Shown piece after piece: positions 3,146-34,254 of a DNA stretch of 61,295 nt (its first letter is position 1; the number at the start of each line of letters is the position of its first letter). The translations under genes and the position numbers were made by a program. The stretch is from Methanosarcinales archaeon. Its GTDB lineage: Archaea; Halobacteriota; Methanosarcinia; Methanosarcinales; Methanogasteraceae. Under the pieces are notes generated by a model. The model made no database searches, was not told where the DNA came from, and saw only the letters and a program-made list of their open reading frames with translations. The stretch lies in NCBI GenBank assembly GCA_004211975.1, contig RXIK01000113.1, forward strand, positions 1-61,295, given 5' to 3'.

Positions 3146-3499
3146 CTACTTGCTTGGCACATAGATCATTCCACCATCCTGCATCTCATATATTGTTCCG
3201 ACCGTCCCGATAACATCCTCTTCGATCATCGTCTCGCTCATATTCAGTGTCTTGATCTCTTGCCCGCTCTTGACAATTACCTCCATTGTGGGCTCGCCCG
3301 GGTTTTTCACGATTGTCACATCCTGATCTGGCGTGATCAGTTCTGGCAGGTGGTATGAGGTCACAAGCGCGATAAGGAGTGCGACAGCAAAGACCATCGC
3401 TACATCGAAGAGGTTTGTAACTCCGCCCATCGGGTTTTCGCCGTATCGTTTCTTTCTGTTTCTGCCGCGGTTTCCGTTATTTCCGTTCTTCAGATACAT
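3146..3499 (-). CDS. ExbD-like single-pass partner protein (DUF2149-type)
   Basis: Basic N-terminus, one TM (NLFDVAMVFAVALLIALV), then a small beta-rich domain (VTIVKNPGEPTMEVIVKSGQEI...GTIYEMQDGGMIYVP). Overlaps the MotA/ExbB gene by 23 nt. Confidence 0.6.
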   Translation of the reverse strand: MYLKNGNNGNRGRNRKKRYGENPMGGVTNLFDVAMVFAVALLIALVTSYHLPELITPDQDVTIVKNPGEPTMEVIVKSGQEIKTLNMSETMIEEDVIGTVGTIYEMQDGGMIYVPSK

Positions 3500-7100: not shown

Positions 7101-10100
7101 ACCTCGCCGTCCGGATCTGCGACAATCGAGATGTTATGGTTGCCTTTGGCACCTGGTCTCCACTCGTAAGAGAGATTGGTACTACTCCTTATACCCGCAA
7201 CCATTCTTCGGTCCACCTCCACGCCATCCGCAACAAATGAAACATTGAAATGCTCGTCAGTTATTCCGGAGACGTTTGCGTTGATGAGGTTCGTTACGTT
7301 CACGTAGATACTGTCCGGAAGCACCACATCCGCGATCGCAAGGTCAGGGAGGCTTACGTAGACCTCTCGCGTCAGATTATTGTTCTCTTCGTACCGCTCA
7401 TCGACCCTGCCGTCCGAATCGACAAAGACAGTTATATTGACGAATCCATCACTTGACGGCACCCATTCAAGCGAGAACGGGATATCTGATATCTCGGGGT
7501 CGTACCATATCGACCGCACCGTCGTTACGGATGTGGAGACACCGTCCTCAAGGAGGGATACATTAAACATCCCGCCATCGCAACGCAGTGTCCCGTGCAC
7601 GGTGCAGCTTGTATTGACGTAGATGGTGTCAGGAACCTCGATTTTGCCGGTCGGGGATATATCCGGCATCGGATAGGAATCGATATCCGTGATCCTTGGG
7701 GGACATGGGCACGTAGCAAGCGCAGGGACCACCTTTGCGGTGGTATATCTCGGGAAGAACGACTGGTTCGTTGTATAGTTGAACGATCCGTCTGGCTGTT
7801 GCAGGCTCATCAGATAATCGATCGGTGTTACGCTATCGTTTATGCTTGTATTCCTCCATTCGAGCGGGTTCTCGCCCATGGCAATGATCGCCTGCACCGC
7901 ACACGCGGTTGTGACCGCGTCTGAGAGGTTGCCATCGTGACCGATATTCCTGCGCAGGAACTCAAGAGCATCTATCGTTATGTTGGAATCCGGCGGTTCG
8001 CCTGCCGCAACAAGCGCCTGTATTATGAATGCGGTAGTCCTCAAATTGCTCGTAACTTCAAATATGGCGTTTCCATTCGTCGTGTTCCCGCTTGTGGTGT
8101 TTCCGTCAGTTGTGTTTCCATTCGTCGTGTTTCCGTCGAGTATGTCATCGGTTTCGTTCGTATTTCCATTATTGTGATTCTCAATTATCCTGCTCCAGCC
8201 GCCATCCTCGTTCTGATGGGATACAATGTAACCCCGTGACTTGTTGATCCTCTCTGCGGCGCTTCTATCGCCACACGCGGTGAGTGCGAGGATGCCGAGT
8301 GCGTCATCGTTCACAGAAACGGGATCGCCAAACTGGACGCCGTCATGGTACGATTTCACCATTGTTAGGTAGTTCACGTTCCCGAAGTTCGTTGGGTCGA
8401 TGTCCCCGAGCACGCTTATGGCAAGTAACGTGCGTGCACAGTCCTCAAAGGTTGCGATCACGAAATCGTTGTATGGGAGCAAGGGATAGGCTGCAAGATA
8501 GTCAGCGAGCGATCTGCCATAGAGCTTCCGTTCACGAGGGTCTTCCCTTGCGGCAGCGATCGCAAGAACGGCCCATGCAGAGGTTGAGAACGGACCGATG
8601 CTGCCACTGCTCGGGGTCTGTTTCGCTTGCAGGAACTTAAGTGCAACTGCGACGTGACCCCGGCGCTTGTATGGCAGTTCATGTATCTCGGTGGTGATGG
8701 ATCTCTCTGTCTGAAACAAGACTACCGAGTCGTTAATCGATGCAACGAGGGATACTTCGCAAATTCCGGTGCCTTCGGGCTTCCGGACAAATTCCAGAGT
8801 CTTCTGCTTACTCTTGAGTAATTTAATGCGTCTTGACTCGATCATCTCGTTGTTTACTGTCAGGTTCACGGTAATATCAGTAATTCTCTGCGAGTTCTGG
8901 CTGATCACCGCGGTGACTCTGTCTTTCACTCCGGCGTAGGCTCTCTGCGGCAGCGTGATCGATTTGATCGTTAGATAATACTCCTCAGCATAAGGCTTGC
9001 AAAGGGGATAATAATCGCTTGTGTTATTACTTATGTTGTGTGGCACGTCCAGGATTCCATCATCATCATCATCATCGGGATCCGCACCTGTCCAGCTATC
9101 CCAGTAGTTCCCTATATAATTCACAAAGGTGGTGTTGTTGTGTCTGTAACTTAGCGGACTGCTTGCGTTCCAGTGGTTGTTCTGCCCGGTATCTATTGCA
9201 AACGTGTTTTCCGGGCTATCTCCAGCTTCTGCAAAGAACAGACCGTTGGCATAGATCGTGTTGTTATTTCCCTGCACCTTGATTGTGTAACAGCAGTCGC
9301 AGATCATGTTGTTATAGATCGTATTGTCATCAGATTCTGATGTGATCAAGACGCCTGGCGTTGCAAAACGGAAACCCCAACTGGGGGGAGACAAACTGCC
9401 TGACATGAAGTTATCCGCTATCAAACAGTCTGTTGAACCCTCGATTCTTATGAGGGAACTGCTATCAGCCCATGAAGCATGTGTCAGCAGAAGATTTGTG
9501 AGTGAGATCTTCTCAGACTCCGTTATGTTGATTGCCCGCCAGCCCTCAGGAAATTGACTTCCATACGATGAGTCAACCCGTACTACAAATCCATCGAGCT
9601 CAATATTGCTTGAGCCTACTATCCCTATCAGATTGGGTCTGGCGCGTCCGGCGGGGCTGCCATGGGCTATGATTCTTGTGTCTTCGCCACTGCCAAGTAT
9701 CTTCAGGTGATCTCTGTTTGTTATGGTCAATCTACTTTCATAGTCCCCCTCATCGACGTGAATCACAGTATACGTGGTGGAATTGTCCACCGCCCACTGG
9801 ATGGTTGTATAATCATCCGGCACTCTAATGACCAGTGTCTCCCCCACAACCACATCTCCTGATAGGATATTATTGTCCTCATACCACTCATCGACCTGAT
9901 TATCATAATCAATCTCAATTCTGATTGTGTGATCTCCCGCGTCTTCCGTCACCCAGTCAAAGGAGACGGTCGCTTCTTCCATCGGTGAAAGTGACGGAAG
10001 CGTCCGCAGATCAATCACCTCGCCGTTATCCACAAGCACCACACAGAAGCCGCCTGATATGGTTGCGCCCCGGTTCATAACAGTTGTCCCAACAGTCGTC

Positions 10101-10843
10101 TCGAAGTGTGTGTGCAGATCAGATCCGACTGTAAGTTCACCTATTGAGAGCTCAGGAAGCAGCGCGGGAAGTTCCGCATCTTCACAGCTCCAGATGATCA
10201 CATCTCCAGCTGTAAGGGGGTGATCCTCTGACACATTAGTCCATCCATCTGATTTGGAATCGTACAGATGCACAACAGGGCTTTTGATACCGTCGATTCC
10301 GGTTACATTTCCTCCACTCGATTCAAATGCCTGGTTTAGCATCCCACATGCAATCTCTGTGGCATTCATGAGTATGAAATCTGATCCTCGGTTCAGAAAC
10401 AGTGGCTGGTAGTGGATTGTTTCGTCCGAATCGAGGATCAGCACAACAGCATCCACGGATTTGAATGTGATGTTGTGAATCAAGTTCAGTTGATCTGCAT
10501 CAGAGACTGTGTACGTGGAGATGTTTGTGGTTCCGGCATCCCTATTTATAGAATCAAACTGTAGCACATCCCCCGAACAAATATCTGATCTGTTGAGAAC
10601 GAGTTTGTAATGGTTGTGACTGGTATCTGCATCCCACGTTCTGCTCGTGTTCAGGTTCGTAATCCCCACAGTGAAATTGCCGCAGACAATCCCGTTTTCA
10701 TAAACTGCCGATCCTGCGATAAGAAAAGGTATTGGAGGTGCGGGCGCGAACAACGGTTGTGCTGCTACGAGCGCAATAGCAATTGTGCACAGCAGAACAA
10801 CAGGGAGTACACGGGAAGTTCTTCGTATCCTTGCAACCATCAT
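4133..10843 (-). CDS. Giant (2236 aa) C-terminally anchored multidomain surface protein
   Basis: Signal/TM. Domain order read from the translation: ~90-aa NYY beta-sandwich; CARDB; NosD-like right-handed beta-helix (..YIGNYWDSW..DYYPL); CARDB-like; alpha/alpha toroid (HQNEDGGWS, QQPDGSFNY); four tandem CARDB (each ending E.NN); Ig-like; PQQ-like beta-propeller; CARDB; G/P-rich linker; TM plus basic tail (ILAILILLGLLVQGIRKERGRYRRYVK). GAGGT lies 8 nt upstream of the ATG at 10843. Confidence 0.85.
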   Translation of the reverse strand: MMVARIRRTSRVLPVVLLCTIAIALVAAQPLFAPAPPIPFLIAGSAVYENGIVCGNFTVGITNLNTSRTWDADTSHNHYKLVLNRSDICSGDVLQFDSINRDAGTTNISTYTVSDADQLNLIHNITFKSVDAVVLILDSDETIHYQPLFLNRGSDFILMNATEIACGMLNQAFESSGGNVTGIDGIKSPVVHLYDSKSDGWTNVSEDHPLTAGDVIIWSCEDAELPALLPELSIGELTVGSDLHTHFETTVGTTVMNRGATISGGFCVVLVDNGEVIDLRTLPSLSPMEEATVSFDWVTEDAGDHTIRIEIDYDNQVDEWYEDNNILSGDVVVGETLVIRVPDDYTTIQWAVDNSTTYTVIHVDEGDYESRLTITNRDHLKILGSGEDTRIIAHGSPAGRARPNLIGIVGSSNIELDGFVVRVDSSYGSQFPEGWRAINITESEKISLTNLLLTHASWADSSSLIRIEGSTDCLIADNFMSGSLSPPSWGFRFATPGVLITSESDDNTIYNNMICDCCYTIKVQGNNNTIYANGLFFAEAGDSPENTFAIDTGQNNHWNASSPLSYRHNNTTFVNYIGNYWDSWTGADPDDDDDDGILDVPHNISNNTSDYYPLCKPYAEEYYLTIKSITLPQRAYAGVKDRVTAVISQNSQRITDITVNLTVNNEMIESRRIKLLKSKQKTLEFVRKPEGTGICEVSLVASINDSVVLFQTERSITTEIHELPYKRRGHVAVALKFLQAKQTPSSGSIGPFSTSAWAVLAIAAAREDPRERKLYGRSLADYLAAYPLLPYNDFVIATFEDCARTLLAISVLGDIDPTNFGNVNYLTMVKSYHDGVQFGDPVSVNDDALGILALTACGDRSAAERINKSRGYIVSHQNEDGGWSRIIENHNNGNTNETDDILDGNTTNGNTTDGNTTSGNTTNGNAIFEVTSNLRTTAFIIQALVAAGEPPDSNITIDALEFLRRNIGHDGNLSDAVTTACAVQAIIAMGENPLEWRNTSINDSVTPIDYLMSLQQPDGSFNYTTNQSFFPRYTTAKVVPALATCPCPPRITDIDSYPMPDISPTGKIEVPDTIYVNTSCTVHGTLRCDGGMFNVSLLEDGVSTSVTTVRSIWYDPEISDIPFSLEWVPSSDGFVNITVFVDSDGRVDERYEENNNLTREVYVSLPDLAIADVVLPDSIYVNVTNLINANVSGITDEHFNVSFVADGVEVDRRMVAGIRSSTNLSYEWRPGAKGNHNISIVADPDGEVREVCETNNAATLDCMVILPDLVPVCLTPDVAFVRARNNITVTIDGTAEEFNVSLVENGAVVANATNITCYGQTSVNLTYKPTSLGNHTVTAVIDSDGGILETEETNNNLSSVINVTRTDLVPIRILPDIMYLNKTNRIIIPVTGTAEGFNATLIAYARDMPGGMITVRDGTGNATNTTNVTNLAIINATDLDTYNDGNLTIWWQPDFQGWHNLTVVVDPDNNVNETNESNNNHTGEAFVANEIQLELVSPRIGEICGGIHPIKWKALHDKNLTIDLLYSSNYGIEWTMLASNLTCDPRLTANLTENLIKGGNATNATDATNAANASNTTNLTHAVNYNGVYLWDTTNHTDGEYLIRITARWYILRGVYTSNTVIVLNGDAASGGLGGNARYFDCDTPDEPHLAWVSEDIFAGGSTSIVVADDTVFVYCTGNEGFSSSDYTYMVALNATNGEMLWATEIAPAEYGSWSSPAYHNGSIFIASGMHVYRIAGRTGRILWDYTFSDCCANCNAGPSISGGRVYVTSFYRSLHTDPSMTCPESSEGNLFCLDVETGGELWNTSTYLPPIRHLGTPTPKYGRIYYGRGGDLYCLTLDGAVVWNTSLKHDVYSAPVIVDGVVYASTYEFGMGFGGFNCLDAFNGSILWNYPVQRTDSTPAYFAPGDSDKKYIYVVGGCSGFSGSGVYCFNATNGSLIWGSEKVGSWTNSPAVSRDAKVFVGVSAGNFNYNGLKCLDAYNGTELWSSPYGGSSPYIAYGRIYTIGGNRLYAFGGRDQPDLVVTAASAGGGVVHATIKNIGTGGTNESFRVALRQWGRVIDEHTVDALDAGESVAVTLSLHGACGNLEVYADSGGDIPERDEYNNMMGVTVPCDDGGGGEPPGNDPPGNSETSPNTQVRQGIGPRGSGYLGKYFDFGDGTDKDATEAGIEAVINETETTSGMKQKAKGYPMGTELKTGGAGGGYVSYTMAILAILILLGLLVQGIRKERGRYRRYVK
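8067..8141 (-). repeat. 5 x 15-nt imperfect in-frame tandem repeat encoding (G-N-T-T-x)n sequon tract
   Basis: gtgtttcc(a/g)t(t/c).gt. units. Protein reads DGNTTNGNTTDGNTTSGNTTNGN inside the giant protein. Confidence 0.9.
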
Positions 10844-10961
10844 CAATCATACCTCAACAATCAGATCATTATGATTCTAAACAAATCTACCTTATGTTAA
10901 ATGTTATGAGTGTGTCTGTGCTTCTGACATGTCCATCCGTCTAACTGGTGCATCGATAGCT

Positions 10962-12206
10962 TCACATAACCGCAATTGCAATGATTGCGACAACCGCAAT
11001 AACAACGATTCCAACAATTGCGGCGAGTGACTTTTTCCAATTCCTCTCTTCCACTGGTGCGACCGCTTCGGCGTCAGTCCTGCCTTCAGTCTCGCGTCCG
11101 GCAGATTCCGGATGCGCTGTGGTGAGTGAGATCACTTTGACAATCCCGCCCATGATTGAGGCTATCACGACTATGACGATCCCTGCGATCGGTGTTAGAA
11201 TCGGTGATGGAGTCGATTTTGGTTCTGTTCGAAACTTTGTTACATGCCCTGGTTCCTGTGTGGCTACCACTGCTGGCGTTGCAACTTCGAGAGGTGTTGT
11301 TGCAGGCGTTACTGCAGGTGCTGCCCTCGGAGCTGGTGTCGGTGTTGGTGGCGATGTCGGTGTTGGTGTTACACCCCACCCGGGTGGGTATGTTCCGTCT
11401 CTGCTACTACGTCTGTGTGAGACGCTCGTCGTGGTCGTGGTGCTCGACAGTGCGGCGATGATTGTGAAAGCGGCGTCACTCACACCCTCACCGGCATTCC
11501 CTGCCGCATCATGCGCAATCACCTTCACCAGGCACGTGCCCGATGCAGTGTTCGGAATTGTCCAGTTATACGCCCCGCTGTCTGATATTCCGGTTGTTAT
11601 CATCTGGTATGTGGCTCCACCATCCGTGGAGTACGCGATATCAACAGAGGTCACGCCAACGTTGTCAGTTGCGGTCCATCTAATCTCCTCGGCTGTTCCT
11701 GCCTTCCAGTTCTCCCCGCCATCCGGCGAGTTGACCGTAACTACGGGTTCTGAGACCGCGAAATTCCGGACGGTGTGTGGAATCGGTTTTACCTCAGGAG
11801 AGTCCTCTACGATCTCAATTACGCCAATACCTATCTCGCCCTGATCATCATCATTGATTTGTAGCTTGAGGATGGCATAATCAATCAGACCACTTAGACC
11901 CGGGTTGTTTATCTGAAATGCTTGTGTGCGTAATACATTTTTGCCGTCACCCAGGTCGACACGGTTGTAATCAAAATAATCAAAGCTCTCACCAACCACA
12001 TCCGTTATATCAACGAGATTGGAATCGTACGTAAGATTCAGATCACACACGCCGACGTTTGTGACGTTGTCGATTGTGAGTATGTACTCGCCATCGTCGT
12101 TTCTGACGTATATCTCGCAGCAGTACGCGGGAATTGCGAGCAGCAGTATGACAAGAACAATCTTTGCCAGCTTGAGGGTCGCCTTCTTCGGTCTCTTTAG
12201 TTTCAT
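10962..12206 (-). CDS. Membrane-anchored cohesin protein (cohesin, Ig-like, Pro/Thr linker, two C-terminal TM helices)
   Basis: Signal peptide. Cohesin-like module (CDLNLTYDSNLVDITDV..). Ig-like domain (VTVNSPDGGENWKAGTAEEIRWTATD..). PT-rich linker (TPTPTSPPTPTPAP). Two hydrophobic helices at the C-terminus. Confidence 0.75.
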   Translation of the reverse strand: MKLKRPKKATLKLAKIVLVILLLAIPAYCCEIYVRNDDGEYILTIDNVTNVGVCDLNLTYDSNLVDITDVVGESFDYFDYNRVDLGDGKNVLRTQAFQINNPGLSGLIDYAILKLQINDDDQGEIGIGVIEIVEDSPEVKPIPHTVRNFAVSEPVVTVNSPDGGENWKAGTAEEIRWTATDNVGVTSVDIAYSTDGGATYQMITTGISDSGAYNWTIPNTASGTCLVKVIAHDAAGNAGEGVSDAAFTIIAALSSTTTTTSVSHRRSSRDGTYPPGWGVTPTPTSPPTPTPAPRAAPAVTPATTPLEVATPAVVATQEPGHVTKFRTEPKSTPSPILTPIAGIVIVVIASIMGGIVKVISLTTAHPESAGRETEGRTDAEAVAPVEERNWKKSLAAIVGIVVIAVVAIIAIAVM

Positions 12207-12364: not shown

Positions 12365-14083
12365 CTATTTTAGTTCCTCGTATCCACTGATTCCAACAAC
12401 ATGCTTTGCCAGATACATGGCATCGGCTGATGTTATCTTGTCGTCGCCATTGACATCCGCGGTCTCTTTGTATATCTTCTCGAATCCTTCAATTCCAAGC
12501 ACATGTTTCGCAAGATACATGGCGTCATGAATATCCACCGCGCAATCAGAATTGACATCGCCGTTTAAGAATGTGATATACGTCCCGTTCCTCACCGTAT
12601 ACAGCATCCTCTTACCCTCGGGAGTCGCATCCTTAAACGTCGTGACACTCAGATTCAATGGGGATATGCTGCCACCGTCGCCGACAGGTTCGAGCGTAAC
12701 ATTCGCAAAAATTATGTCTCCAGGGAGTCCCGGGTTATTTGCCTGGTATGCGCCGATGCGCACGAATCCCTCGCCTATGTGCTCGAGATTTGCCACGTTA
12801 TCATCGAAATTACCGCCTGTTACGTCTGTGACATTCACAACCGATGAGTTGAACGTGAGCGTGATATCACACGCACCGATATTTACGGCGTTCTCGATTG
12901 TAATTGGCAGAGTCACGACACCGGTACCATTGCCGATGCTGATTATGGCTTCACCGGTTCCGATAACCTGAATCGCCTCGGTGTTGTTGTAGACTAACGA
13001 GTTCACGCCATCATCCATCGTGATATTCACCCGATACGTGCCACCCCTGACAATGACTCCATCATCGTCCGTGCCAGTCCACACTCGCGGGTTCGGATCC
13101 GTTACCTCGGTACATATAAACAGCGATTTCACAACGCCACCATCTACGTTCTCGATTCTGATCGAAGCCTCCACAGCCTCTGAGAACTCGACATCGATTG
13201 TGGTGTAGTCCTCAACCCAGTCTCCATCCGGCGAGATCGTGGTGTTTGAAATCGTGTATGTGGTGAGGTATGGTTCAGGATCTGTGGGATCAGTTGCCAA
13301 CTGAACGATTACGCTCACAGCCACTGTCTTTGTTCCGCCGTTTGAACTCACAGTTACCGTTCCGCTGTGAGCACCACCGGATAGTCCGGTCGTATCAGCA
13401 GTCACCTTGACAGTACCTGCGTCTGACCCGCTCGCCGGGCTAACAGCAATCCACGCCTGGTCGCTCGTGACGTTCCAGTCCAGCGTTCCTGCACCGGAGT
13501 TTGTTATCTCAAATGTGAATGTCTGTGTCTGTGTATTGCCCGTCCGAATACTTCCGAAGTCATGCGATGCCGGGTTGACGCCGAGAATCGGACCTGTAGC
13601 CTCACCAGTGACCGTGAATACGCCATCAATGTCGGTTCGCGGTTCTATCTGAGCGTTGGCTGTATCGATCAGAGCACCGGTTGTAATGTCAAGTACGCTC
13701 TCTTCTCCCGGATTACCATCCACCCTCAATGTGACGGTTGCAAGCAATACGTCCGCACCGGTTACATCCGCATCTATGCTGAGAGGACCTATAACCACCT
13801 TGCCGGTTTTGTTGCTGGCTATAACGCTCATATCCATCCCGAACTCAGGATTGGTCTCTTCGCCAACCACCATAACGATATCAGGATCATATCTAAGGGT
13901 TACCGTGAACCCCCGCAGATGTTCCACATCATGGCATCTGATCTCGGCAGTGGTCGTGAGACCGGGATCTGCCGAAGCGTTCGCGATAATTATTGTTGGT
14001 TCTGCAGATGCGGCAGGGATCATGCCGAGCAGGCATATCACAATTCCTATTGTTGCAAGCAACATTTTATGTATATTATTCAT
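12365..14083 (-). CDS. Adaptor scaffoldin: cohesin, Ig/BACON-like, FlgD-Ig-like, cohesin, dockerin
   Basis: Start moved to MNNIHKMLLATIG (signal peptide), which removes the overlap with 14100..15185. Two cohesin modules. C-terminal duplicated calcium-loop dockerin (GDVNSDCAVDIHDAMYLAKHVLG / ADVNGDDKITSADAMYLAKHVVG). Confidence 0.8.
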   Translation of the reverse strand: MNNIHKMLLATIGIVICLLGMIPAASAEPTIIIANASADPGLTTTAEIRCHDVEHLRGFTVTLRYDPDIVMVVGEETNPEFGMDMSVIASNKTGKVVIGPLSIDADVTGADVLLATVTLRVDGNPGEESVLDITTGALIDTANAQIEPRTDIDGVFTVTGEATGPILGVNPASHDFGSIRTGNTQTQTFTFEITNSGAGTLDWNVTSDQAWIAVSPASGSDAGTVKVTADTTGLSGGAHSGTVTVSSNGGTKTVAVSVIVQLATDPTDPEPYLTTYTISNTTISPDGDWVEDYTTIDVEFSEAVEASIRIENVDGGVVKSLFICTEVTDPNPRVWTGTDDDGVIVRGGTYRVNITMDDGVNSLVYNNTEAIQVIGTGEAIISIGNGTGVVTLPITIENAVNIGACDITLTFNSSVVNVTDVTGGNFDDNVANLEHIGEGFVRIGAYQANNPGLPGDIIFANVTLEPVGDGGSISPLNLSVTTFKDATPEGKRMLYTVRNGTYITFLNGDVNSDCAVDIHDAMYLAKHVLGIEGFEKIYKETADVNGDDKITSADAMYLAKHVVGISGYEELK

Positions 14084-14099
14084 TTTTTGTGTCACCTCG

Positions 14100-15185
14100 T
14101 TATACTCCGGGATAGAGATCCGGATAGTCGGGATCGCCATACGAATACTTGATTAGATGCATCACGTCCTGAAAAGCGCCTGCCGTACCTATTGTACCAT
14201 CACCATTGCAATCGGGATTGTCAAATATCTCAGGATAGTCAGGATCACCATACGAATACTTGATTAGATGTATCGCGTCCTGAAAAGCGCCTGCCGTACC
14301 TGTTATACCATCGCCGTTGATGTCCCCGCTCATTGGGTCTCCAGACTCTGCACCGTAATTCTCAAACGGCTCCATCAGAGGATAATGGTATTTTTCTATA
14401 CTACCACCGAATGGTACATACCGCTCAGCTCCAATACCATCACCTTTGTCCTCACCGACATAGTCATCCCAGTAGTTGCCCATGTAACTGGTGTAGGTAG
14501 TATCCTTATACGTATAGGTCATCTGAACCGGGGAACTCCATTCGTTCCGGGTGCTATAGGCGAAGACGTGGCCCTTGGCATCGTGATTGTTGATGAAGTT
14601 ATTCAGATATACAATGTTGTTAGAACTATCCTTATCATAGAGACTTAACTTATCCATGTTAGAGATCGTGTTCCGCCTCAGGATGCTTCCGGTACTGCCA
14701 CTAGTAAACCAGACTCCTTCGTCGCATCGATCAATGAGATTGTCCTCAATGATCGTTCCTTCTATATCTTCCGGGAGGTTGTCGGTTCCGACAGATACTC
14801 CGAACGCGGTACTGCCGGTGTGGGTGATCGTGAAGCCCCGCAGGACTACGCCTGAAGCCAGGATGTGGACCGCATCGTTACTGTGATGCGCAACTCCGGA
14901 AACACCTCCGGCATCGATGACGGGCTGACCAACACCCTCCAGTGTCAGTCTCTTCTCGACTTTGAGCCTTTCGTTGTAGGTTCCGGCATAGACCTTGATT
15001 GTGTCCCCGTCGCCGGACTCGTTTATCGCATCACCGATTCTCGTATAGTCGGCATCCGGGTACTCAGCCCCATTATCGTCCACATGCCATGTCTCTGCTG
15101 CCACTGGCAGCGCAATCACAAGCATAGCGACAATAGCTATGCCTGCGAGCGTTATAATTCGTTTCGTTCGAGTTTTTCTGTTCAT
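14100..15185 (-). CDS. Secreted NosD-like right-handed beta-helix protein with an atypical duplicated dockerin-like tail
   Basis: Signal peptide. AETWHVDD..GDTIKVYAGTYNERLKV..LTLEG; beta-helix rungs; YMGNYWDDYVGEDKGDGIG..YHYPL. Tail is two copies of (D/C)(I)NGDG(I/T)(T/I)GTAGAFQD.(I/M)HLIKYSYGDPDYP. Confidence 0.75.
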   Translation of the reverse strand: MNRKTRTKRIITLAGIAIVAMLVIALPVAAETWHVDDNGAEYPDADYTRIGDAINESGDGDTIKVYAGTYNERLKVEKRLTLEGVGQPVIDAGGVSGVAHHSNDAVHILASGVVLRGFTITHTGSTAFGVSVGTDNLPEDIEGTIIEDNLIDRCDEGVWFTSGSTGSILRRNTISNMDKLSLYDKDSSNNIVYLNNFINNHDAKGHVFAYSTRNEWSSPVQMTYTYKDTTYTSYMGNYWDDYVGEDKGDGIGAERYVPFGGSIEKYHYPLMEPFENYGAESGDPMSGDINGDGITGTAGAFQDAIHLIKYSYGDPDYPEIFDNPDCNGDGTIGTAGAFQDVMHLIKYSYGDPDYPDLYPGV

Positions 15186-16884: not shown

Positions 16885-17928
16885 CTATGGCGCATCCTCC
16901 ATGCCTGCCGCATACCTTGCTATGTACAGCACATCAAGCAGGTTCATCATGCCATCGCCCGCAGGGCTGCCGGACGTGCCAACAACATCTCCAACAAGTA
17001 GTATATCCTGCGAACCGGGATCCGGCTCAGCACCTGTGATATAGCCGGAGATGCGCATCGCATCCTGCATGTCAATCCTGTTGTCCCGGCAAACATCACC
17101 CCGTCTCAGAACGGTCAGCGTGATTGCAGCCGTGGTGTTGCTGTTTCCTGCGCCGTCGGTCGCGTTGATCGTCAACTGGTGGGTCTGGTTAACACCCATG
17201 GTTGCACTCGTGGAAACCTTCCAGATATCAGTTCCGGAAACGTGTTCCATCAGTTGGACCGGGGATCCGCCAACAGGCGAGAGATCGATTGTGACGCCTG
17301 AAACGCCACTGTCATCATCATTCACCATAACGTTTATCAGTGTTACGTTGGTTCCTTGCGATCTGGCTCTGTCATTGTCGTTTAATATCGTATCCCGACT
17401 TGCGCCTGTTACTGCAATCATCGGTGGCTCCATGTCAAGCAGTTTCTCGACTGTGAGCGTCCCGTTTGTTACAGTGTAGTTGATCGAATCATAGTTCACA
17501 TCAACGAGCTGATCGACTATGATGTCAAGCGGGCTTGTGTCGCCGTTGCTTCCCACAGCGGTCAGGTTGATGTATGCAGCGACCACGTCGTTATCCGGTC
17601 CGGTTACATCGATTGTGTTTGCATGCATACAGCCGGTTCCGTTGTTGATCGTGTATCTAAGAAGCGTCATGTCACCCGGGGTGATGTTCACTACATGGAC
17701 AACCGAGGCGTCATACCTGATTCTGATGTCGCACCCACCCAGGTCTGTTACGTTGCTCACCATGATCGGCAGAGTTGCGTTTTCTCCCGGTGCAATAGTG
17801 AGATCATCAATTGTTACTGTTGCGTTTTTAGCGGTGGCGGTAGCGGACGTGCCAAACACGACAAGCATGACAAGCATGCATAGCGCAATTCCGGCTGCTA
17901 CAGACCGTTTTTTCTGTATATCTCTCAT
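16885..17928 (-). CDS. Cohesin, Ig-like, variant dockerin protein
   Basis: Signal peptide. Cohesin (GGCDIRIRYDASVVHVVNI). Ig-like module EPPMIAVTGASRDTILNDNDRAR...TINATDGAGNSN. Variant dockerin RGDVCRDNRIDMQDAMRISGYITG ... MMNLLDVLYIARYAAG. Confidence 0.75.
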   Translation of the reverse strand: MRDIQKKRSVAAGIALCMLVMLVVFGTSATATAKNATVTIDDLTIAPGENATLPIMVSNVTDLGGCDIRIRYDASVVHVVNITPGDMTLLRYTINNGTGCMHANTIDVTGPDNDVVAAYINLTAVGSNGDTSPLDIIVDQLVDVNYDSINYTVTNGTLTVEKLLDMEPPMIAVTGASRDTILNDNDRARSQGTNVTLINVMVNDDDSGVSGVTIDLSPVGGSPVQLMEHVSGTDIWKVSTSATMGVNQTHQLTINATDGAGNSNTTAAITLTVLRRGDVCRDNRIDMQDAMRISGYITGAEPDPGSQDILLVGDVVGTSGSPAGDGMMNLLDVLYIARYAAGMEDAP

Positions 17929-17986: not shown

Positions 17987-19702
17987 TCATTTTAGTTCCT
18001 CATATCCGCTGATTCCAACGACATGCTTCGCAAGATACATGGCATCGGATGATTTTATCTCGCCGTCGCCATTGACATCTGCAGCCTCTTCATCGATCGT
18101 CGTAAATCCGGGCTTCTTGAGCACGTACTTTGCAAGATACATGGCATCGTGTATGTCCACTATACCATTGCCATTGACATCACCGTTCATGGATACGCCA
18201 CCGGTGTACGTTCCGTTCCGGACGATATACGGCATCTGGTTGCCCACAGGGGTTGCATCCTTGAATGTCACAACACTCAGGTTCAGCGAACAGTTGCCAC
18301 CGTTGACAGGTTCAAGCACAACATTTGCAAAGGTGATCTCTCCGGAGAGTCCCTGGTTACCGCTCTGGTACGTGCCGATACGCACCAATCCCTCGTGTGC
18401 GTGCTCGAGATTCGCAACGGTTATGTCCATGTCCCCGCCGGTCACCCCGGTTACATTCACAACAGCAGGATCGAATGTGAGCGTTATGTCACATGCACCA
18501 ACGTCCACACCGTTCTTGATTCCAATCGGCAGGGTCACGTTTCCGACACCATCACCGATGCTGATTACGGCGACACTCGTGTCTGCCACGATGATCGATC
18601 TCGTGTTATCGAAGACCACCGGGTTCACGCCGTCATCCATCGTTACGTTCACATAATACGTGCCGTAAGCGACAGTATTATCGCCGTCGTCTGTTCCGTC
18701 CCATATCTTTGGGTTTGGGTCCTTCACACTTGCTGAGGTGTACAACGTCTTGATAACACCGGTTGCGTTCTCAATATTGATAGCAGCCGCCACAGATTCT
18801 GAGAACTTGACATCAATCTCGGTGTCATCCATCACACCATCTCCGTTAGGGGAGATTGTGGAGTTGTAGATCGTGTATGTAACGAGAGTGGGGGAAGGAT
18901 TACCCTGTGCGAACGTTATGTCAAAGTTAAATATCCCTCCCGCAGCGATATCGTCTGCTGCGATGGTGCGATCGGTTGTACTGGAATCAGAACCGCATGT
19001 CACGTTGAATTGCAGCGCATCGCCGGAGTTAATATCTGCTGGCATGCCGAGCACGAGCATGTAGTAATCGCTGCCAGCAGTAGTCGTAGCATCCCAGCTT
19101 ACACCTGTGTTCGTGTTCGTTATCTTAACCGACGGATCACTGCAGGGGGTGCCATCCGAGCCTGTCACACATCCATCGATCACAAACGGCAATTGAGGTT
19201 CTGTTCCCCCGTTTCCACCGCTGACTGTGATCGACCCATTTGTCACCTCAAACAGAATCGGTGTTGTCTTTGACGTATCCCTCAGTTTGGTAACATCCAG
19301 ACCGAGCGGTGTTGAGCCGGTCCCGACCGCCTCGAACGTTACACTGACAAATTCAATGTCGCCGCTCACGCCACCGATATTCCACGCAGAAATACTCACG
19401 ACTCCGGCAGTGTTATCCGCATTATGCGCAGTAACAGTAGAGTTTGTATTACCGGTAACACCAGTAACATGCACCACTGCCGGGTTGTACGTGATGCTCA
19501 TCGTTCCGGTGCCGTAGTTCCGGATATCCTTGAGCATGACCTCCGCGGTCACAGTTCCGCCGGCATCACACGTAAGGTCGCCGATTGATACTGTAGTTGC
19601 GCTGGCAGTGGAACTGCTGCCACTACCAGCGATCATCGGCACAAGCATCATCACAACGAATATTGTGATTACCTGTGCCATACTTTGTTTCATTCGTTTC
19701 AT
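17987..19702 (-). CDS. Adaptor scaffoldin: cohesin, NYY beta-sandwich, FlgD-Ig-like, cohesin, dockerin
   Basis: Signal peptide. Two cohesins. LPFVIDGCVTGSDGTPC..TNTNTGVSWDATT..DYYMLVL module. C-terminal half parallels 12365..14083. Dockerin GDVNGNGIVDIHDAMYLAKYVL / ADVNGDGEIKSSDAMYLAKHVVG. Confidence 0.8.
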   Translation of the reverse strand: MKRMKQSMAQVITIFVVMMLVPMIAGSGSSSTASATTVSIGDLTCDAGGTVTAEVMLKDIRNYGTGTMSITYNPAVVHVTGVTGNTNSTVTAHNADNTAGVVSISAWNIGGVSGDIEFVSVTFEAVGTGSTPLGLDVTKLRDTSKTTPILFEVTNGSITVSGGNGGTEPQLPFVIDGCVTGSDGTPCSDPSVKITNTNTGVSWDATTTAGSDYYMLVLGMPADINSGDALQFNVTCGSDSSTTDRTIAADDIAAGGIFNFDITFAQGNPSPTLVTYTIYNSTISPNGDGVMDDTEIDVKFSESVAAAINIENATGVIKTLYTSASVKDPNPKIWDGTDDGDNTVAYGTYYVNVTMDDGVNPVVFDNTRSIIVADTSVAVISIGDGVGNVTLPIGIKNGVDVGACDITLTFDPAVVNVTGVTGGDMDITVANLEHAHEGLVRIGTYQSGNQGLSGEITFANVVLEPVNGGNCSLNLSVVTFKDATPVGNQMPYIVRNGTYTGGVSMNGDVNGNGIVDIHDAMYLAKYVLKKPGFTTIDEEAADVNGDGEIKSSDAMYLAKHVVGISGYEELK

Positions 19703-20659: not shown

Positions 20660-21436
20660 TCACCTGCCACCTCCACGCTTTGTATTCCATGTCAGGATCA
20701 GGTACCCGAGTAGAATTGATAGTGAGATTGATACGATCCCGGATCCTGGAGCCACCTGTCCGGAAGCCGTCTGTAATTGTGCGTGTGCTGTATCAGCAGG
20801 TTCTGCGTGATCCTCCTCCGGCTGCGCCGAATCAGGCGATTCATCCGGTTCGGATCCTGACTCCGCACCCATCACCACATCAGGGAGCGGTGGTGTGAGC
20901 TGTGAGGGGGATTGCCCGCCAGAACCCTGTTCCGGTGTTGATGTGGGTGTTGCATCTCCGGAACCACCGGTTATCATGAATGTTCCATCACTCACCCCGG
21001 CTTCAATCGGCTTCATTGATGTGTTTACCATCTTGACGAGATCAAGGGTGAGTGTGCTCGAGCCCCCCTCACTTCCGACCGCTGTCAGTGTCACGTCTGC
21101 AAATACGATATCCCCGCTCACACCAGCAAGATTCCATGCGGATACACTGGCGATTCCGGCGGTGTTGTCGATGTCGGGTGGGGTTACTGTCGAATCGTCG
21201 CTATTCGAGATTCCTGTGATGTGAACCGCCCCGGGATCATACGTGATGTTTATCGTGCCGGCACCGTAGTTCGCGATGCTGGCGATTCTGATCGGCACGG
21301 TGACCTCGCCCCCGGTTGCGGCTGTACAGTCATCGATTGCTACAGTCACAGCCGCAACAGAGACCTGCACGGCTCCGACAGCCAGCATCAGCGCCAGAGA
21401 TATGATCATTACGGTTTTATGAGTCATCTGTTCCAT
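20660..21436 (-). CDS. Membrane-anchored cohesin protein (variant PGF-CTERM-like tail)
   Basis: ATG at 21436 (MEQMTHKTVMIISLALML..). One cohesin (YGAGTINITYDPGAVHITGI). Ser/Pro/acidic linker. C-terminal APGSGIVSISLSILLGYLILTWNTKRGGGR. Confidence 0.75.
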   Translation of the reverse strand: MEQMTHKTVMIISLALMLAVGAVQVSVAAVTVAIDDCTAATGGEVTVPIRIASIANYGAGTINITYDPGAVHITGISNSDDSTVTPPDIDNTAGIASVSAWNLAGVSGDIVFADVTLTAVGSEGGSSTLTLDLVKMVNTSMKPIEAGVSDGTFMITGGSGDATPTSTPEQGSGGQSPSQLTPPLPDVVMGAESGSEPDESPDSAQPEEDHAEPADTAHAQLQTASGQVAPGSGIVSISLSILLGYLILTWNTKRGGGR

Positions 21437-21510
21437 GTCATCCTCGTTTGCAAAAAGAATAGCCGATGGCACCCTTCCCGGATGCCATCATGCCATCACG
21501 CAACCACACT

Positions 21511-23751
21511 TCAGGGTGCAGACTCCAGCCCGACACTGTACCGGGCGATGTAGTATGCATCCACGATATCGACGCCGTCCCATGAGTCAGCCGGGATGGT
21601 GCCGGCCACGAACTCATCCGGTTCCGGCTCAAGACCGACTGTGTACCGTGCGATATAGTATGCGTCCACAATGTCCACAGCAACATCACTATCGCGCACC
21701 ACATCGCCGCGTATCAGAACCGTTAGCGGGATGCAGACGCCGGTGTTTGAGTTGCCACTCGTGTCAGTCGCATTAACAACGAGGCAGTGGGTCTCGTTCA
21801 CACCTGTTACCGCATTCACCTCTATCTCCCAGATCGTTTCGCTGCCATGAGTCATCTCTGCCGCGGAATCGCCGCCAATCGGTGTGAGATCGATCGTGAC
21901 AGACGCAATCCCTGCGGTATCAGTCACTGAAACGCTCAGCGTGGAGAGATTCGTTCCGGGAACGCGTGCTCTTCCGTTGTCGTTTAATATAACGTCAGGA
22001 GACGACTGCGGACTTCCCACGACTGGTGGCTCGCTCTCGCTCACCGTGAATGACCCGTCATCGTCGTAGACCGGAATATCGTTGTACGACGTATCTTTGA
22101 GCGTTGTTACGGTCAGATCGAGCGTGGTTGTGCTCCCGCTTGGTCCGCGAGCTTCAAGCGTCACGTTTGCGATGGCAACGTCACCTGACACGCCGTCTGT
22201 GTTCCATGCAGAGAATGTGACAACCCCGGATGGGTTGTTGATGTTCACGCTTGATACTGTGGAGTCAGGAGTGTTATCAACGCTCGTGACCCACGCAACC
22301 GATGAGTCGTACTCGAGTTTGATTGTTGTCGTGCCGTAGTTTGTGATGCCGTAGACCGTTATCGGTGCGACGATACTCGAGTCGCTGGTCACGACGTAGT
22401 CGCCGATATCGACTCTCAGCGCAGAAGTGGCTACACTCACACTCTTCTTCTCAGATCTCGTGTAGTCTGCCCATGTTCCCTTATCCGCATGGATCTGATG
22501 CGTCCCGGGCGATCCCAGTGACATTGTAAGCGTACCATCAGGACCTGTTGAGTCGTGTGGTGCACCATCAACATAGACCTCTGCGGCATCAACAGGCTCG
22601 AACAATCCGGAAGTGCCGTTGTACGCTGTGACGGTTGCTGTGAATGTCTCACCGAGCTCAACATTGGTCTTATTAAGCTCTATTGCAAGCGGGGGTGCTG
22701 TCCATGCTCCGAAGTACCAGAGCACCTCATCAGAATCAGCGAGCGTGTACTCAGCGGCGCCAACCCATGGTGAAACGTAGTTCACACGGTACATCCAGCC
22801 ATCCCCGCCGATCGCAGGCTCGCTGTTGATCTCAGAGACGTACAGTCCGTAAACCGCGTTCTCAGCCACATATCCAAATCCGCCTGATTTGTCTGCGCAG
22901 TCGAGTGCTCCGAGTGCTGTTGGCTCATTTAAGTAGTGGACAGAACCATCGGATGCTGTGATCGTTGAGTTACTGAACGTGACGTCTCCGGTCCAGACCG
23001 TATCAGTCGTACCCTCTATTCTCACGTTTGCTGTGACTGTGAGTTTTTCGAGGACGTTCACAGTCTGCAGGAGATCATTGTTCGTCTCATCCGACTCAAC
23101 TATGACGCCAGATGCGTCTGCCGTTACGGTGAGTGTTGCACTGCCTGTTGCGGCTGGCGTCCAGAGGAGCATGACGGTGGTGTTCTCTCCGGCTGCAAGC
23201 GACGCGATACTCACTGTGTCAACAGTCGTACTACCAACATCAAGCGTCACATCGAAACTTCCGGTATTGTCCGTTCCGGCATTCTCGACTGTTGCGCTGA
23301 TCGGGTTGATCACATCGTTGCGCAGATTGGTTGGCGCAGTGACTGTGGTTACGATTAGATCAATATCTGCGGTGGCTGGTTCAAGCGTTATATCCTCGCT
23401 GAACCCTCCGGTATCAATCTCAGCCAATGCTATCGTATGTTCCACCATCATCGACTCTGAGCATCCTGACGCATCGAATCGCAATACGTCGTCTATGCTC
23501 ACGTTCTCACTGTCGAGCACGAGCAGATAGCTGTTCGATGTTGCTAAAGTCACAGCGTTCCAGATCAGGCCGGTGTTCGTGTTCGTTACTTGCACCACTG
23601 CACCGTTGCATGGAGCACCAGTCGAATCAACTACATATCCATTGATCACAAACGGTGTCGATGGTTCTGCCATCGCTGGCGCAGCAAGTATGAACAGTGC
23701 TACAGCCAGCAGTGCGCCCATTATGTTGTTAGTTTGTATATTATATTGCAT
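21511..23751 (-). CDS. Multidomain dockerin protein: NYY beta-sandwich, CARDB, DUF4430 (transcobalamin-like C-terminal domain), Ig, cohesin, Ig, variant dockerin
   Basis: AGGAG 7 nt upstream of the ATG. Signal peptide. DUF4430 hallmark ..GGDGWMYRVNYVSPWVGAAEYTLADSDEVLWYFG. Cohesin (YGTTTIKLEYDSSVAWVTSV). Dockerin RGDVVRDSDVAVDIVDAYYIARYTVG / WDGVDIVDAYYIARYSVG. Confidence 0.8.
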   Translation of the reverse strand: MQYNIQTNNIMGALLAVALFILAAPAMAEPSTPFVINGYVVDSTGAPCNGAVVQVTNTNTGLIWNAVTLATSNSYLLVLDSENVSIDDVLRFDASGCSESMMVEHTIALAEIDTGGFSEDITLEPATADIDLIVTTVTAPTNLRNDVINPISATVENAGTDNTGSFDVTLDVGSTTVDTVSIASLAAGENTTVMLLWTPAATGSATLTVTADASGVIVESDETNNDLLQTVNVLEKLTVTANVRIEGTTDTVWTGDVTFSNSTITASDGSVHYLNEPTALGALDCADKSGGFGYVAENAVYGLYVSEINSEPAIGGDGWMYRVNYVSPWVGAAEYTLADSDEVLWYFGAWTAPPLAIELNKTNVELGETFTATVTAYNGTSGLFEPVDAAEVYVDGAPHDSTGPDGTLTMSLGSPGTHQIHADKGTWADYTRSEKKSVSVATSALRVDIGDYVVTSDSSIVAPITVYGITNYGTTTIKLEYDSSVAWVTSVDNTPDSTVSSVNINNPSGVVTFSAWNTDGVSGDVAIANVTLEARGPSGSTTTLDLTVTTLKDTSYNDIPVYDDDGSFTVSESEPPVVGSPQSSPDVILNDNGRARVPGTNLSTLSVSVTDTAGIASVTIDLTPIGGDSAAEMTHGSETIWEIEVNAVTGVNETHCLVVNATDTSGNSNTGVCIPLTVLIRGDVVRDSDVAVDIVDAYYIARYTVGLEPEPDEFVAGTIPADSWDGVDIVDAYYIARYSVGLESAP

Positions 23752-28657: not shown

Positions 28658-28844
28658 TTCGTTTATTCTCCTCTTGTTGTTGTTCGTATTCTATTCCACA
28701 GAGCCAGCACATGAGCCGCCCTGCACATACGCCGTTTCTGGCAATATAATGCACTTACCACCGCACCATAATGAGCAAGCATCGCCCATATAGGGGCAAA
28801 TCCCCGTGCATCTCGGATTTTTTAAGTGGTGGTTTGAAATAAAC

Positions 28845-28873: not shown

Positions 28874-28888
28874 AATTCTTTCACGCTT

Positions 28889-32410: not shown

Positions 32411-32445
32411 CTTGTTTACCTCCTAAAAAATAAAAAAGAATTATG

Positions 32446-34254
32446 TTATGGTGTCACCACCAGTTTAACATAATCCGTCTCGATGTGGGAATGTTCCCTT
32501 GCTCCTGCGTCTGCACTCTTTTGTTTCACCAATACCGTCACATTGCCTGAATTGGTGTAGCTGTTAATGCCCGATGTTTTCTCGCCAGTTAAAGTCGCAT
32601 CGGTGCCAACACTGTTGTTAGCCAGCTCTTCGTATGCTGTGCCATTCCAGATGTAAAGCGTTGTACCACCGTCATCGCCTCCTACTGCGCCACGATATCC
32701 CTTACCATTCCACGTAACGTTTATCTTCGTTATCCACGACTCCTCGTTATCGATGCTGAAGTTGAACCTGTGGGCTGCGTATTTGCCATTGGTACTCGTC
32801 ACATATGTCTCATAAGTCCCATCATCTACTCTGATGTTAGAGTATGAACCTATCGCACCAGTTGGATCGTTGACAGTAGCGGGTGTACCGCTTACCTCAC
32901 CTTCATACGCCCACTTATCCGTACCAGCTCCTACATCGAAGTCATACCTCGTCCAGTTCGAGAGACCAAACAGGTATCCTGCATCATTTCCAAAGAACAC
33001 ATATCCGCATGAGATCGCTGCACCCTGAAGTGTATACTGTATCTTGCCTGCCGGCGGCTGATAGTGCCATTGCTCTCTGGCAGCAGTGTTTCCGACATAA
33101 TCTTTAAGACAGTATAGCCTTCCACTCGCGTGATTCGTGGTGAAGTATATATATATCTCGTTGTTCGTGCCGTTATCATACCATGTTGATATAGCTGGCG
33201 ATGATTGCACCGCGCCGTTCGGCGTAAAGTCCCATATATGTGTCAAATCAGATTCATTCAGACAGAGCAATGCATGGTTACCTGTGCTGAAGTTTCCTCC
33301 ACCTACGTAAACCCTTCCTTTGTAAACCACTGGTGTTGATGTGCTGTAACGGATGTCGTAGCTGTCCCAATCCAACGAGTTAAAATGACCCTCATAACTG
33401 GCACCAGTGGACTTGTTAAAGCCGATCTTCGATAAATGATAACCCGATCTGTTCGTAAAGAATAGGTGTTCATACCCTGTTGAGTCTGATTCGTTCCGTG
33501 CAATCGAAGATCTGATCTTACCGCTGCCAACGTATAGTGAATCTACATACGCACCGTTATTAGTCCAGTTTAAAGATGTTAGACAACCGCTGTCATTACC
33601 GAAGACTATGTAATCACCTATTACCGCACATCCTGCCCAGTAATTTGCACCTGCCCCGCTGTACGCCCAATCCTCTGTGCCATTGTCATAGTAACTGAAG
33701 TAACTATTACCCAAATCACCAAAGAACAACCTGCCCTTTTCACCATCAGTGCTATCGTTGTAGTATGTAATTGGGCAACCGTTACTGCCACACACATCTA
33801 CATTCCATCGTCCTGCACCTGATGCGGCGTTAATAGCATAGAGATATCCATCCTGACTATTCAGTACAAATATCGTATTGTTGCCATACGCCGGGGTCGA
33901 AAGCTGGAAATTCCCAGAGCCAACCGTTACCGGCCAGTTTCCACCAGCCGCAGTGCCATTCTTGTAGTATTTGAACAAATATGCGCCGCTGTCATTCGAC
34001 GCAAGCACATAGACATAATCTCCTACCACTATTGGTGTTGTATCGATGCCATAATACCACCATCCACTTTGATAATTTGCTGTATGTTGGCTCCAGTTGT
34101 CCGGCGCCGTTATCGGCGCACTGTCCGCGGTTCTTCCGATATTAACTTCATCCTTTTGGAATTGGGACCAGTCGGACGCCGCTATCGTTAGGGTGAGCGC
34201 AAGCGTCACCATCGTTAGTACTGTTACTGTTTTTATCATGTTGATTTTATTCAT
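32446..34254 (-). CDS. Secreted PQQ-like beta-propeller protein with uncharacterised C-terminal module (paralog A)
   Basis: Signal peptide then SDWSQFQKDEVNIGRT (typical propeller start). Repeated blade motifs. C-terminal WTRYDFDVGAGTDKWAY..KYAAHRFNFSID..TLYIWNG..ETDYVKLVVTP. Confidence 0.8.
   Translation of the reverse strand: MNKINMIKTVTVLTMVTLALTLTIAASDWSQFQKDEVNIGRTADSAPITAPDNWSQHTANYQSGWWYYGIDTTPIVVGDYVYVLASNDSGAYLFKYYKNGTAAGGNWPVTVGSGNFQLSTPAYGNNTIFVLNSQDGYLYAINAASGAGRWNVDVCGSNGCPITYYNDSTDGEKGRLFFGDLGNSYFSYYDNGTEDWAYSGAGANYWAGCAVIGDYIVFGNDSGCLTSLNWTNNGAYVDSLYVGSGKIRSSIARNESDSTGYEHLFFTNRSGYHLSKIGFNKSTGASYEGHFNSLDWDSYDIRYSTSTPVVYKGRVYVGGGNFSTGNHALLCLNESDLTHIWDFTPNGAVQSSPAISTWYDNGTNNEIYIYFTTNHASGRLYCLKDYVGNTAAREQWHYQPPAGKIQYTLQGAAISCGYVFFGNDAGYLFGLSNWTRYDFDVGAGTDKWAYEGEVSGTPATVNDPTGAIGSYSNIRVDDGTYETYVTSTNGKYAAHRFNFSIDNEESWITKINVTWNGKGYRGAVGGDDGGTTLYIWNGTAYEELANNSVGTDATLTGEKTSGINSYTNSGNVTVLVKQKSADAGAREHSHIETDYVKLVVTP

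Follow-up and report, generated by a model that had tools for sequence, protein, structure and literature searches.

A transcobalamin-like DUF4430 domain in a cohesin-bearing, predicted surface protein of a Methanosarcinales archaeon, and a candidate toroid partner encoded in the same gene cluster

What do anaerobic methane-oxidizing archaea and their bacterial partners exchange apart from electrons? Some of the partner bacteria are predicted from their genomes to rely on the archaeon for cobalamin (PMC10553843). A concrete form of this question is raised by a 61,295-nucleotide stretch of DNA from an uncultured, ANME-like Methanosarcinales archaeon (contig RXIK01000113.1, assembly GCA_004211975.1; this whole stretch is referred to below as the window). 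It encodes, at 21511..23751 on the (-) strand, a predicted secreted, modular surface protein of 746 amino acids (aa), here called the target, in which an earlier sequence-only reading had placed a DUF4430 domain with the fold of the beta domain of eukaryotic cobalamin carriers. Does the target carry such a domain, what might it bind, and is the other half of the carrier architecture, an alpha/alpha toroid, available to it? Our analysis shows that aa ~238-350 are a bona fide transcobalamin-like DUF4430/SLBB beta-grasp domain. We tentatively propose (probability roughly 0.4) that it is a working module for a soluble ligand, probably a tetrapyrrole-type cofactor, which is displayed at the cell surface and completed in trans by the toroid of a giant protein of the same cluster.

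The open reading frame (ORF) is as the sequence-only reading described it, with residues 237-348 corresponding exactly to nucleotides 22708..23043 and the sequence quoted for the domain lying inside, and the DUF4430 pattern claimed for these residues was borne out. Pfam DUF4430 (PF14478), whose model spans only the C-terminal half of the structural unit, matched aa 292-348 (E = 1e-8, 35.9 bits; gathering score 23.8), and a hidden Markov model (HMM) of the family, built from 131 full-length instances of the domain, matched aa 232-354 (E = 2e-53). The domain as delimited here by Pfam, the family HMM, AlphaFold2 and Foldseek occupies 22702..23043 on the (-) strand (aa ~237-350), and the family HMM found no second copy elsewhere in the six frames of the window. 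Kinship with the cobalamin carriers also held. A 40-sequence profile of the family (A1) compared with the PDB matched the human transcobalamin (TC) beta domain (5no0, E = 1e-6), full-length TC, haptocorrin (HC), intrinsic factor (IF) and the structural-genomics entry 3u7z, which is labelled just "putative metal binding protein". An AlphaFold2 model of aa 229-358, obtained from a 22-row alignment (A3; mean predicted local distance difference test score, pLDDT, 87.3; predicted template modeling score, pTM, 0.83), contains a helix (model residues 51-62), a hairpin (strands 66-71/74-80) and further strands at 89-95 and 114-120. The hairpin after the helix is the feature that defines the transcobalamin-like clade of the SLBB superfamily (PMC1796856). 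When the model was compared with the PDB by Foldseek, the top 19 matches were all TC, HC or IF beta domains or 3u7z (E = 2.6e-6 to 3.5e-4; template modeling (TM) scores of 0.73-0.80 normalized to the isolated TC beta domain), and the 20th match had an E value of 0.1.

The target consists throughout of extracellular domain types. Its N-terminus, MQYNIQTNNIMGALLAVALFILAAPAMA followed by EP, reads as a signal peptide (judged by eye from the sequence rather than with a predictor), the hydrophobic segment ending in AMA directly before EP. It is followed by an N-terminal immunoglobulin (Ig)-like domain, a CARDB domain, the DUF4430/SLBB domain, a second Ig-like domain, a cohesin, a third Ig-like domain and a dockerin-like C-terminus; a comparison of the protein with NCBIfam gave no match. 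The CARDB domain (23074..23361 (-), aa 131-226; Pfam E = 1.3e-21) also matches PDB 2l0d, a cell-surface protein (E = 2.7e-9), and is the first element of a conserved CARDB-DUF4430-Ig cassette. The third element, the Ig-like domain after DUF4430 (22426..22689 (-), aa 355-442), has weak Pfam matches only (BiPBP_C, E = 0.0072 to 0.031) and is a segment conserved in 59 homologs.

When aa 225-354 were searched against 1.84 billion representative proteins, 722 relatives had E ≤1e-3, of which 170 reached E ≤1e-10, and a full-length alignment (A2) was used to collect 62 named relatives. Named close homologs come from Methanophagaceae (ANME-1, a group of anaerobic methanotrophic archaea), Methanosarcinales, a genome named "Methanoperedenaceae GB50", Ca. 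Argoarchaeum ethanivorans and Ca. Syntrophoarchaeum, and the closest relative in the genome collection (L001) is 80% identical. The domain sits in the CARDB-DUF4430-Ig cassette in 56 homologs, across which mean identity to the target is 74% for DUF4430, 61% for CARDB and 62% for Ig. DUF4430 was more conserved than CARDB in 54 of the 56 within-protein comparisons and more conserved than Ig in every one, a contrast drawn within the same proteins from a homolog set that was seeded with DUF4430 and hence carries some ascertainment bias. Compared with importer-linked relatives in which a toroid is fused to DUF4430 (described below), the target domain is on average 44% identical and retains 41 of the 49 columns with ≥70% conservation among them. 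Because these columns are kept and the domain is the most conserved part of the cassette, it looks functional rather than decayed. The cassette is joined to varied partner domains (PQQ propellers, NosD beta-helices, cohesin and an unknown C-terminal domain), with a cohesin in only seven cassette homologs and a dockerin of the target type in only four. As a separate observation, an approximately 190-aa domain ("TTYDFTTGAG...STDYVKVD") without a Pfam match lies in the middle of ORF 24902-26623 (-) and forms the C-terminus of a ~620-aa cassette family (P0013, P0159 and P0164); ORFs 32446..34254 and 40751..42577 close with "ETDYVKLVVTP", akin to the end of this domain.

How would such a protein be held at the surface? 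The sequence-only reading had given the target both a cohesin and a dockerin, of which the cohesin stood and the dockerin did so only in a non-canonical form. A Pfam scan of the target at E ≤1 found neither. The cohesins that Pfam does detect in the window were used to build an HMM, and this HMM matched aa 446-572 (22036..22416 (-); E = 4.3e-34), a region that is 37-44% identical to the Pfam-positive cohesins of two downstream genes (BLASTP E = 1e-24 and 2e-25), and the ortholog P0183 (65% identical) passes the Pfam Cohesin model (E = 1.2e-7, 32.4 bits; gathering score 24.1). By these similarities, the target carries a clear cohesin (PF00963). Type I dockerins (PF00404) have two ~22-residue repeats, in which a Ca-binding loop (D1, N/D3, D5 and D12) is followed by a helix. 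The C-terminus of the target (21514..21723 (-), aa 677-746) was matched across both repeats by an HMM built from the canonical dockerins of the window (E = 5.4e-5), and contains two DIVDAYYIARYxVGLE helices with degenerate loops: loop 1 has Val at position 3 and a 2-residue insertion, and loop 2 is short by 2 residues. Given these degenerate loops, the lack of a Pfam match in the target and a Dockerin_1 match of only E = 0.068 in ortholog P0183, we call it a divergent dockerin-like module; ORF 16885..17928 ends in the same variant. The adjacent downstream gene (20660..21472 (-)) encodes a cohesin (Pfam E = 6.9e-9) followed by a C-terminal hydrophobic anchor and a basic tail (...GSGIVSISLSILLGYLILTWNTKRGGGR), and this cohesin is a candidate docking site for the dockerin-like tail of the target.

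The second half of the carrier architecture is encoded further along the cluster. A giant surface protein (4133..10846 (-), 2,237 aa; identified from Pfam and sequence) combines six CARDB domains, an alpha/alpha toroid, a PQQ-type beta-propeller and a C-terminal transmembrane anchor. Its toroid (7697..8692 (-), aa ~719-1050) is the proposed trans partner of DUF4430. When the region was scanned alone, Pfam SQHop_cyclase_C scored 30.7 bits (gathering score 26.1), and its AlphaFold2 model (pLDDT 85.2) is confident apart from a disordered 33-residue stretch. The giant's toroid shares 34-40% identity along its entire length with toroids positioned directly before DUF4430 in other proteins (phmmer E = 1e-49 to 1e-20); this toroid-first order, which is that of transcobalamin, occurs in ~45 of 150 DUF4430 representatives. 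Selection bias was removed by searching metagenome contigs with a toroid-only alignment (A5) that excluded the giant protein. Of the 80 loci recovered, 58 carry DUF4430 fused to the toroid or within one ORF with it, eight carry it at another place in the locus and six lack it; the remaining eight were too short to judge, such that DUF4430 was fused to or near the toroid in 66 of the 72 informative loci. Moreover, a toroid-bearing giant and separate DUF4430 proteins co-localize in Methanosarcinales SMBSF02 (L002) and in Methanophagales (L003/L038), and do not in L006 or around five other cassette genes. Judged from sequence, the giant's toroid could credibly act as the partner of the DUF4430 domain in trans. 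The earlier claim that the giant supplies the other transcobalamin half (at 7740-8660) survives as regards a toroid of a DUF4430-coupled family, and is weakened as regards likeness to transcobalamin, which is a distant structural match behind class II terpene cyclases.

Two other identities were considered within the giant protein and rejected. A motif at aa ~178-224 (GW...L..GD.IIW) is not a second DUF4430: the family HMM found nothing there, Pfam gave no match at E ≤10 and the hhalign probability was 2%. An alpha-2-macroglobulin (A2M) thioester domain was discarded for the toroid, with weak matches to the thioester domains of C4/A2M (E ≥3.6e-4) and no CGEQ motif by reading.

Toroid-DUF4430 proteins are typically members of operons for energy-coupling factor (ECF) importers. 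The typical locus encodes a toroid-DUF4430 protein, a small Ig-like protein, a second DUF4430 protein (without a specific name in NCBIfam), CbiQ, a double ABC ATPase and an ECF S component, and is preceded by a winged-helix regulator (wHTH-DUF7839). Among the 29 loci of ≥9 kb, 21 had the ECF S component, 18 CbiQ and 18 the ATPase. An association of the clade with toroids and ECF systems was already seen in 2007 (PMC1796856), and the survey confirms and extends that observation of Burroughs et al. An example of a fusion locus is L050 5902-12639, and loci L040-L119 hold a large family of secreted toroid-DUF4430 fusions that retains a DxDDTA motif like that of class II terpene cyclases. Separately, in Ca. 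Syntrophoarchaeum (L037 8855-11163), a FecCD-type permease and an ABC ATPase are encoded ~1.6 kb from a DUF4430 cassette cluster, on the opposite strand; this importer family carries siderophores, heme or B12, and the arrangement is a single case that may be coincidence.

Surface scavenging of B12 by this clade was proposed in 2007 (PMC1796856), and the isolated beta domain of human TC alone binds cyanocobalamin and cobinamide (PMC5599065). By homology, the most plausible ligand of the DUF4430 module would be a corrinoid or another tetrapyrrole-type cofactor. The cohesin and divergent dockerin of the target would hold the module at the surface, for instance by docking to the membrane-anchored cohesin of the adjacent gene, and the membrane-anchored giant would supply the toroid partner in trans. 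In relatives, the toroid-DUF4430 pair presumably feeds the ECF importer; since no importer is encoded in the window, the target module would more likely capture, retain or hand over its ligand in the extracellular matrix than import it. Ligand binding, the identity of the ligand, the pairing of the two halves in trans and the partner of the dockerin-like tail are all points that we infer.

Several observations weigh against this proposal, some of them concerning the toroid. A profile of the toroid family compared with the PDB matched squalene-hopene cyclase (E = 3.6e-38) and also prenyltransferases, and gave no match to a TC alpha domain at E ≤1. With Foldseek, class II terpene cyclases were likewise best (E = 1.4e-7, TM ~0.63), and transcobalamin (2v3n) ranked 32nd behind them (E = 3.5e-4, TM 0.50). 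The best sequence and fold matches of the family are squalene-hopene and drimenyl-diphosphate cyclases, and an SDVDDTA motif retained in the family lines up with the catalytic DxDD acid motif of class II terpene cyclases. In the toroid of the giant, a 38-residue N/T-rich insert (~8100-8215, aa ~878-915) splits this motif into "NETDD" and "TTAF". The insert has five N-x-S/T sequons and a model pLDDT of <50, and may be a glycosylated loop at the mouth of the toroid; catalysis by this toroid would be doubtful because it is extracellular. The giant protein also matches neither the cohesin nor the dockerin HMM of the window. The sequence-only reading had the DUF4430 domain mounted on the scaffold and its other half supplied by the giant; the coupling of the two families is upheld, and nothing shows the two halves brought together on a scaffold, as the giant has neither a cohesin nor a dockerin. 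Furthermore, the 21-kb locus around the giant ortholog in L006 is devoid of DUF4430.

Other opposing points concern the ligand. Genes of the B12, ECF, Btu or cobamide type are absent from the 61-kb window, as are ECF S, T and A components and a wHTH regulator, and phmmer searches of its six frames with the ECF proteins of related loci found nothing. A scan for cobalamin riboswitches, a check suggested by the earlier reading, found none in the window or in 17 related loci, and the ECF S components of the toroid loci match no named B12 family in NCBIfam. The original rationale was a large need for corrinoids in a methanogen or methanotroph, but no need to scavenge is evident: ANME genomes encode the synthesis of cobalamin, and it is some of the partner bacteria that lack it (PMC10553843). 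Burroughs et al. suggested in 2007 that the ligand in archaea may be "a distinct metabolite" (PMC1796856), and our searches turned up no prokaryotic DUF4430 protein with demonstrated ligand binding; a full-text search for "DUF4430" gave no paper on archaea or ANME. Many relatives hold two to six copies of the domain per protein, a pattern equally compatible with a structural or adhesive repeat and with a binder. In most cases, ANME-type cassette homologs neighbor PQQ/NosD/CARDB surface genes and have neither transporters nor a toroid nearby.

It is possible, if somewhat unlikely, that the domain has a structural or adhesive role. In this reading, the SLBB fold was recruited in these archaea as a rigid or glycan- or protein-binding element of a cassette that assembles and connects proteins of the extracellular matrix, and it binds no cofactor. 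The cassette occurs on many different heads and is repeated within proteins, the neighborhoods of relatives are surface-protein clusters without transporters, and the host lineage makes its own cobalamin (PMC10553843). Polysaccharide-export and other non-B12 members are known from the SLBB superfamily (PMC1796856), and CARDB and cohesin/dockerin proteins of consortia performing anaerobic oxidation of methane are generally read as adhesins (PMC10553843, PMC9012536). Nonetheless, DUF4430 is clearly more conserved than the Ig-type domains that flank it, the sharing of 41 of 49 family positions with importer-linked relatives would be unexpected for a mere spacer, and, both here and in two other lineages, the cluster also encodes a toroid of the DUF4430-coupled family.

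Alternatively, the module could bind a ligand that is not a corrinoid, with the toroid accommodating heme, F430, an isoprenoid or another lipid-like compound, which we regard as unlikely. The SDVDDTA motif and the terpene cyclase affinities of the toroid family would suit such a ligand, as would the unnamed S components, the loci lacking cobalamin riboswitches and the distinct metabolite anticipated for archaea (PMC1796856). Heme in particular is suggested by two parallels. Split homologs in Lactobacillus sakei have been linked to heme uptake (bioRxiv 10.1101/864751), although that assignment comes partly from docking. In addition, the giant gene is followed by genes for a MotA/ExbB-family proton-channel protein (3477..4136 (-); Pfam MotA_ExbB E = 1.5e-9), whose start codon overlaps the stop codon of the giant gene, and a DUF2149 protein (3146..3499 (-); Pfam DUF2149 E = 3.2e-28), the last gene of the giant-ExbB-DUF2149 unit. 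Such a pair constitutes HmuU/HmuV of the Bacteroidota heme-uptake operon hmuYRSTUV (PMC11681262, PMC10434189), a parallel that equally favors a functional binder as we propose. NCBIfam gave no specific name for either protein, and both are kept behind the giant ortholog in L006 19066-20061 (Methanosarcinales UBA203; E = 3.7e-91 and 3e-62). However, the pair is absent from all 80 toroid-DUF4430 loci and was rejected as a general partner of toroid-DUF4430, a result that also counts against our proposal. Moreover, the only experimentally characterized members of the clade (TC, IF and HC) bind corrinoids.

The possibility that the DUF4430 match arose by chance or reflects a decayed, functionless remnant, which could draw on the Pfam match covering 57 residues only and on a sequence identity to transcobalamin of 12-16%, has a negligible probability and is effectively refuted by four independent and agreeing lines (Pfam above its gathering score, the family profile, AlphaFold2 and Foldseek), by the 722 relatives at E ≤1e-3 and by the domain being the best-conserved part of the protein.

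Within our preferred reading, a surface-displayed module for a tetrapyrrole-type cofactor, a more specific version can be formulated: an ANME-type split transcobalamin-like cofactor holder, uncoupled from the ECF importer, that presents cobamide, F430 or heme in the intercellular matrix, for example, to cobalamin-auxotrophic partners. Sulfate-reducing partners of this kind have been predicted for ANME-2a consortia (PMC10553843). In all its particulars this version is quite improbable. More generally, a conserved surface domain of the B12-carrier type is a concrete candidate for the capture or hand-off of a cofactor, and a good one because it is co-localized with a toroid of the type that ordinarily completes such a binding site and is common to ANME-1, ANME-2-type archaea, Syntrophoarchaeum and Argoarchaeum. 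The domain family, the scavenging idea and archaeal multidomain versions were already known in 2007; the display by cohesin and dockerin, the cassette common to alkane-oxidizing archaea and the split toroid/beta arrangement are new. Independently of the archaeal case, the survey reveals a large toroid-DUF4430 family in ECF importer operons. Should the domain bind no cofactor, the outcome would be an ordinary one, namely, one more shuffled module in archaeal surface proteins.

The setting of the target is a surface-protein cluster on archaeal DNA. The window is archaeal: it encodes exosome subunits, SBDS, proteasome alpha and LeuRS at 51.4-57.5 kb, and its proteasome cluster is common to metagenome-assembled genomes named Methanosarcinales or Euryarchaeota archaeon. 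Between 4.1 and 47.8 kb lie genes for ~24 secreted proteins, all on one strand, with modules that include CARDB, NosD beta-helices, PQQ-type propellers, cohesins and dockerins. The cluster is rich in secreted cohesin/dockerin proteins, two-cohesin adaptor proteins and membrane-anchored cohesins. ORFs 12365..14140 and 17987..19702 look like adaptor scaffoldins because each combines two cohesins with one dockerin. The three membrane-anchored cohesin-type proteins (292..912, 10962..12206 and 20660..21472, all (-)) comprise one with a weak PGF-CTERM match and two with C-terminal hydrophobic segments. A collinear segmental duplication (28800-34300 versus 37000-42650; DNA identity 70-90%) has produced two copies of a gene pair in which the gene for a NosD-PQQ-CARDB giant protein precedes that for a PQQ-propeller protein. 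At the upstream end of the surface cluster, a region of ~2.9 kb (47750-50640) has no ORF of more than ~130 aa, no Rfam match and no notable repeats. A group II catalytic intron (Rfam RF00029) was matched at 37-114 (+), the extreme edge of the window (61.6 bits; gathering score 40).

How does this arrangement compare with known systems? Its cohesin/dockerin setting resembles that described for ANME archaea (Chadwick et al. 2022, PMC9012536), with the same types of secreted cohesin/dockerin proteins, adaptors and membrane-anchored cohesins. The usual cargo there consists of ABC substrate-binding proteins (NikA/OppA and TroA), unlike the target. With hmuYRSTUV (PMC11681262, PMC10434189), the likeness is that a MotA/ExbB and DUF2149 pair ends an operon with an extracellular binding protein; in contrast to that operon, the window has no HmuY, TonB-dependent receptor or CobN-like HmuS, and archaea have no outer membrane.

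Closer likenesses are found among the carriers themselves. The target shares with the transcobalamin-like clade of the SLBB superfamily (PMC1796856) the beta-grasp core with its hairpin after the helix, a probable place in a secreted surface protein, the company of Ig-type domains and, at the level of the gene cluster, that of an alpha/alpha toroid as a candidate partner, and large multidomain archaeal versions were noted there in 2007. It differs in that the domain is part of a CARDB-DUF4430-Ig cassette on one chain with a cohesin and a dockerin-like tail, while the toroid resides on a separate giant membrane-anchored protein with no CbiO/CbiQ (ECF) operon nearby. TC, IF and HC (PDB 2bb5, 2pmv and 4kki; TC beta domain 5no0/5np4) have the same beta fold, the same logic of a toroid plus a beta-grasp domain and shared motif positions (GGF.Y, G.Y, a conserved Trp and P..G..Y). 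They are single chains with an N-terminal alpha6/alpha6 toroid, a linker and the beta domain, whereas the beta domain of the target is preceded by CARDB and the toroid, encoded in 4133..10846, is nearer to terpene cyclases than to TC-alpha. ECF-linked toroid-DUF4430 fusions (e.g., L050) resemble the two halves at the sequence level (identities given above) and differ in their importer setting, the halves here being parts of very large surface proteins, with display through cohesin and dockerin in the case of the target. Lastly, in Lactobacillus sakei, the alpha and beta halves are encoded as separate proteins, Lsa1839/Lsa1840, within an ECF operon (bioRxiv 10.1101/864751), which illustrates that the halves of this architecture can be separate proteins, as they are here.

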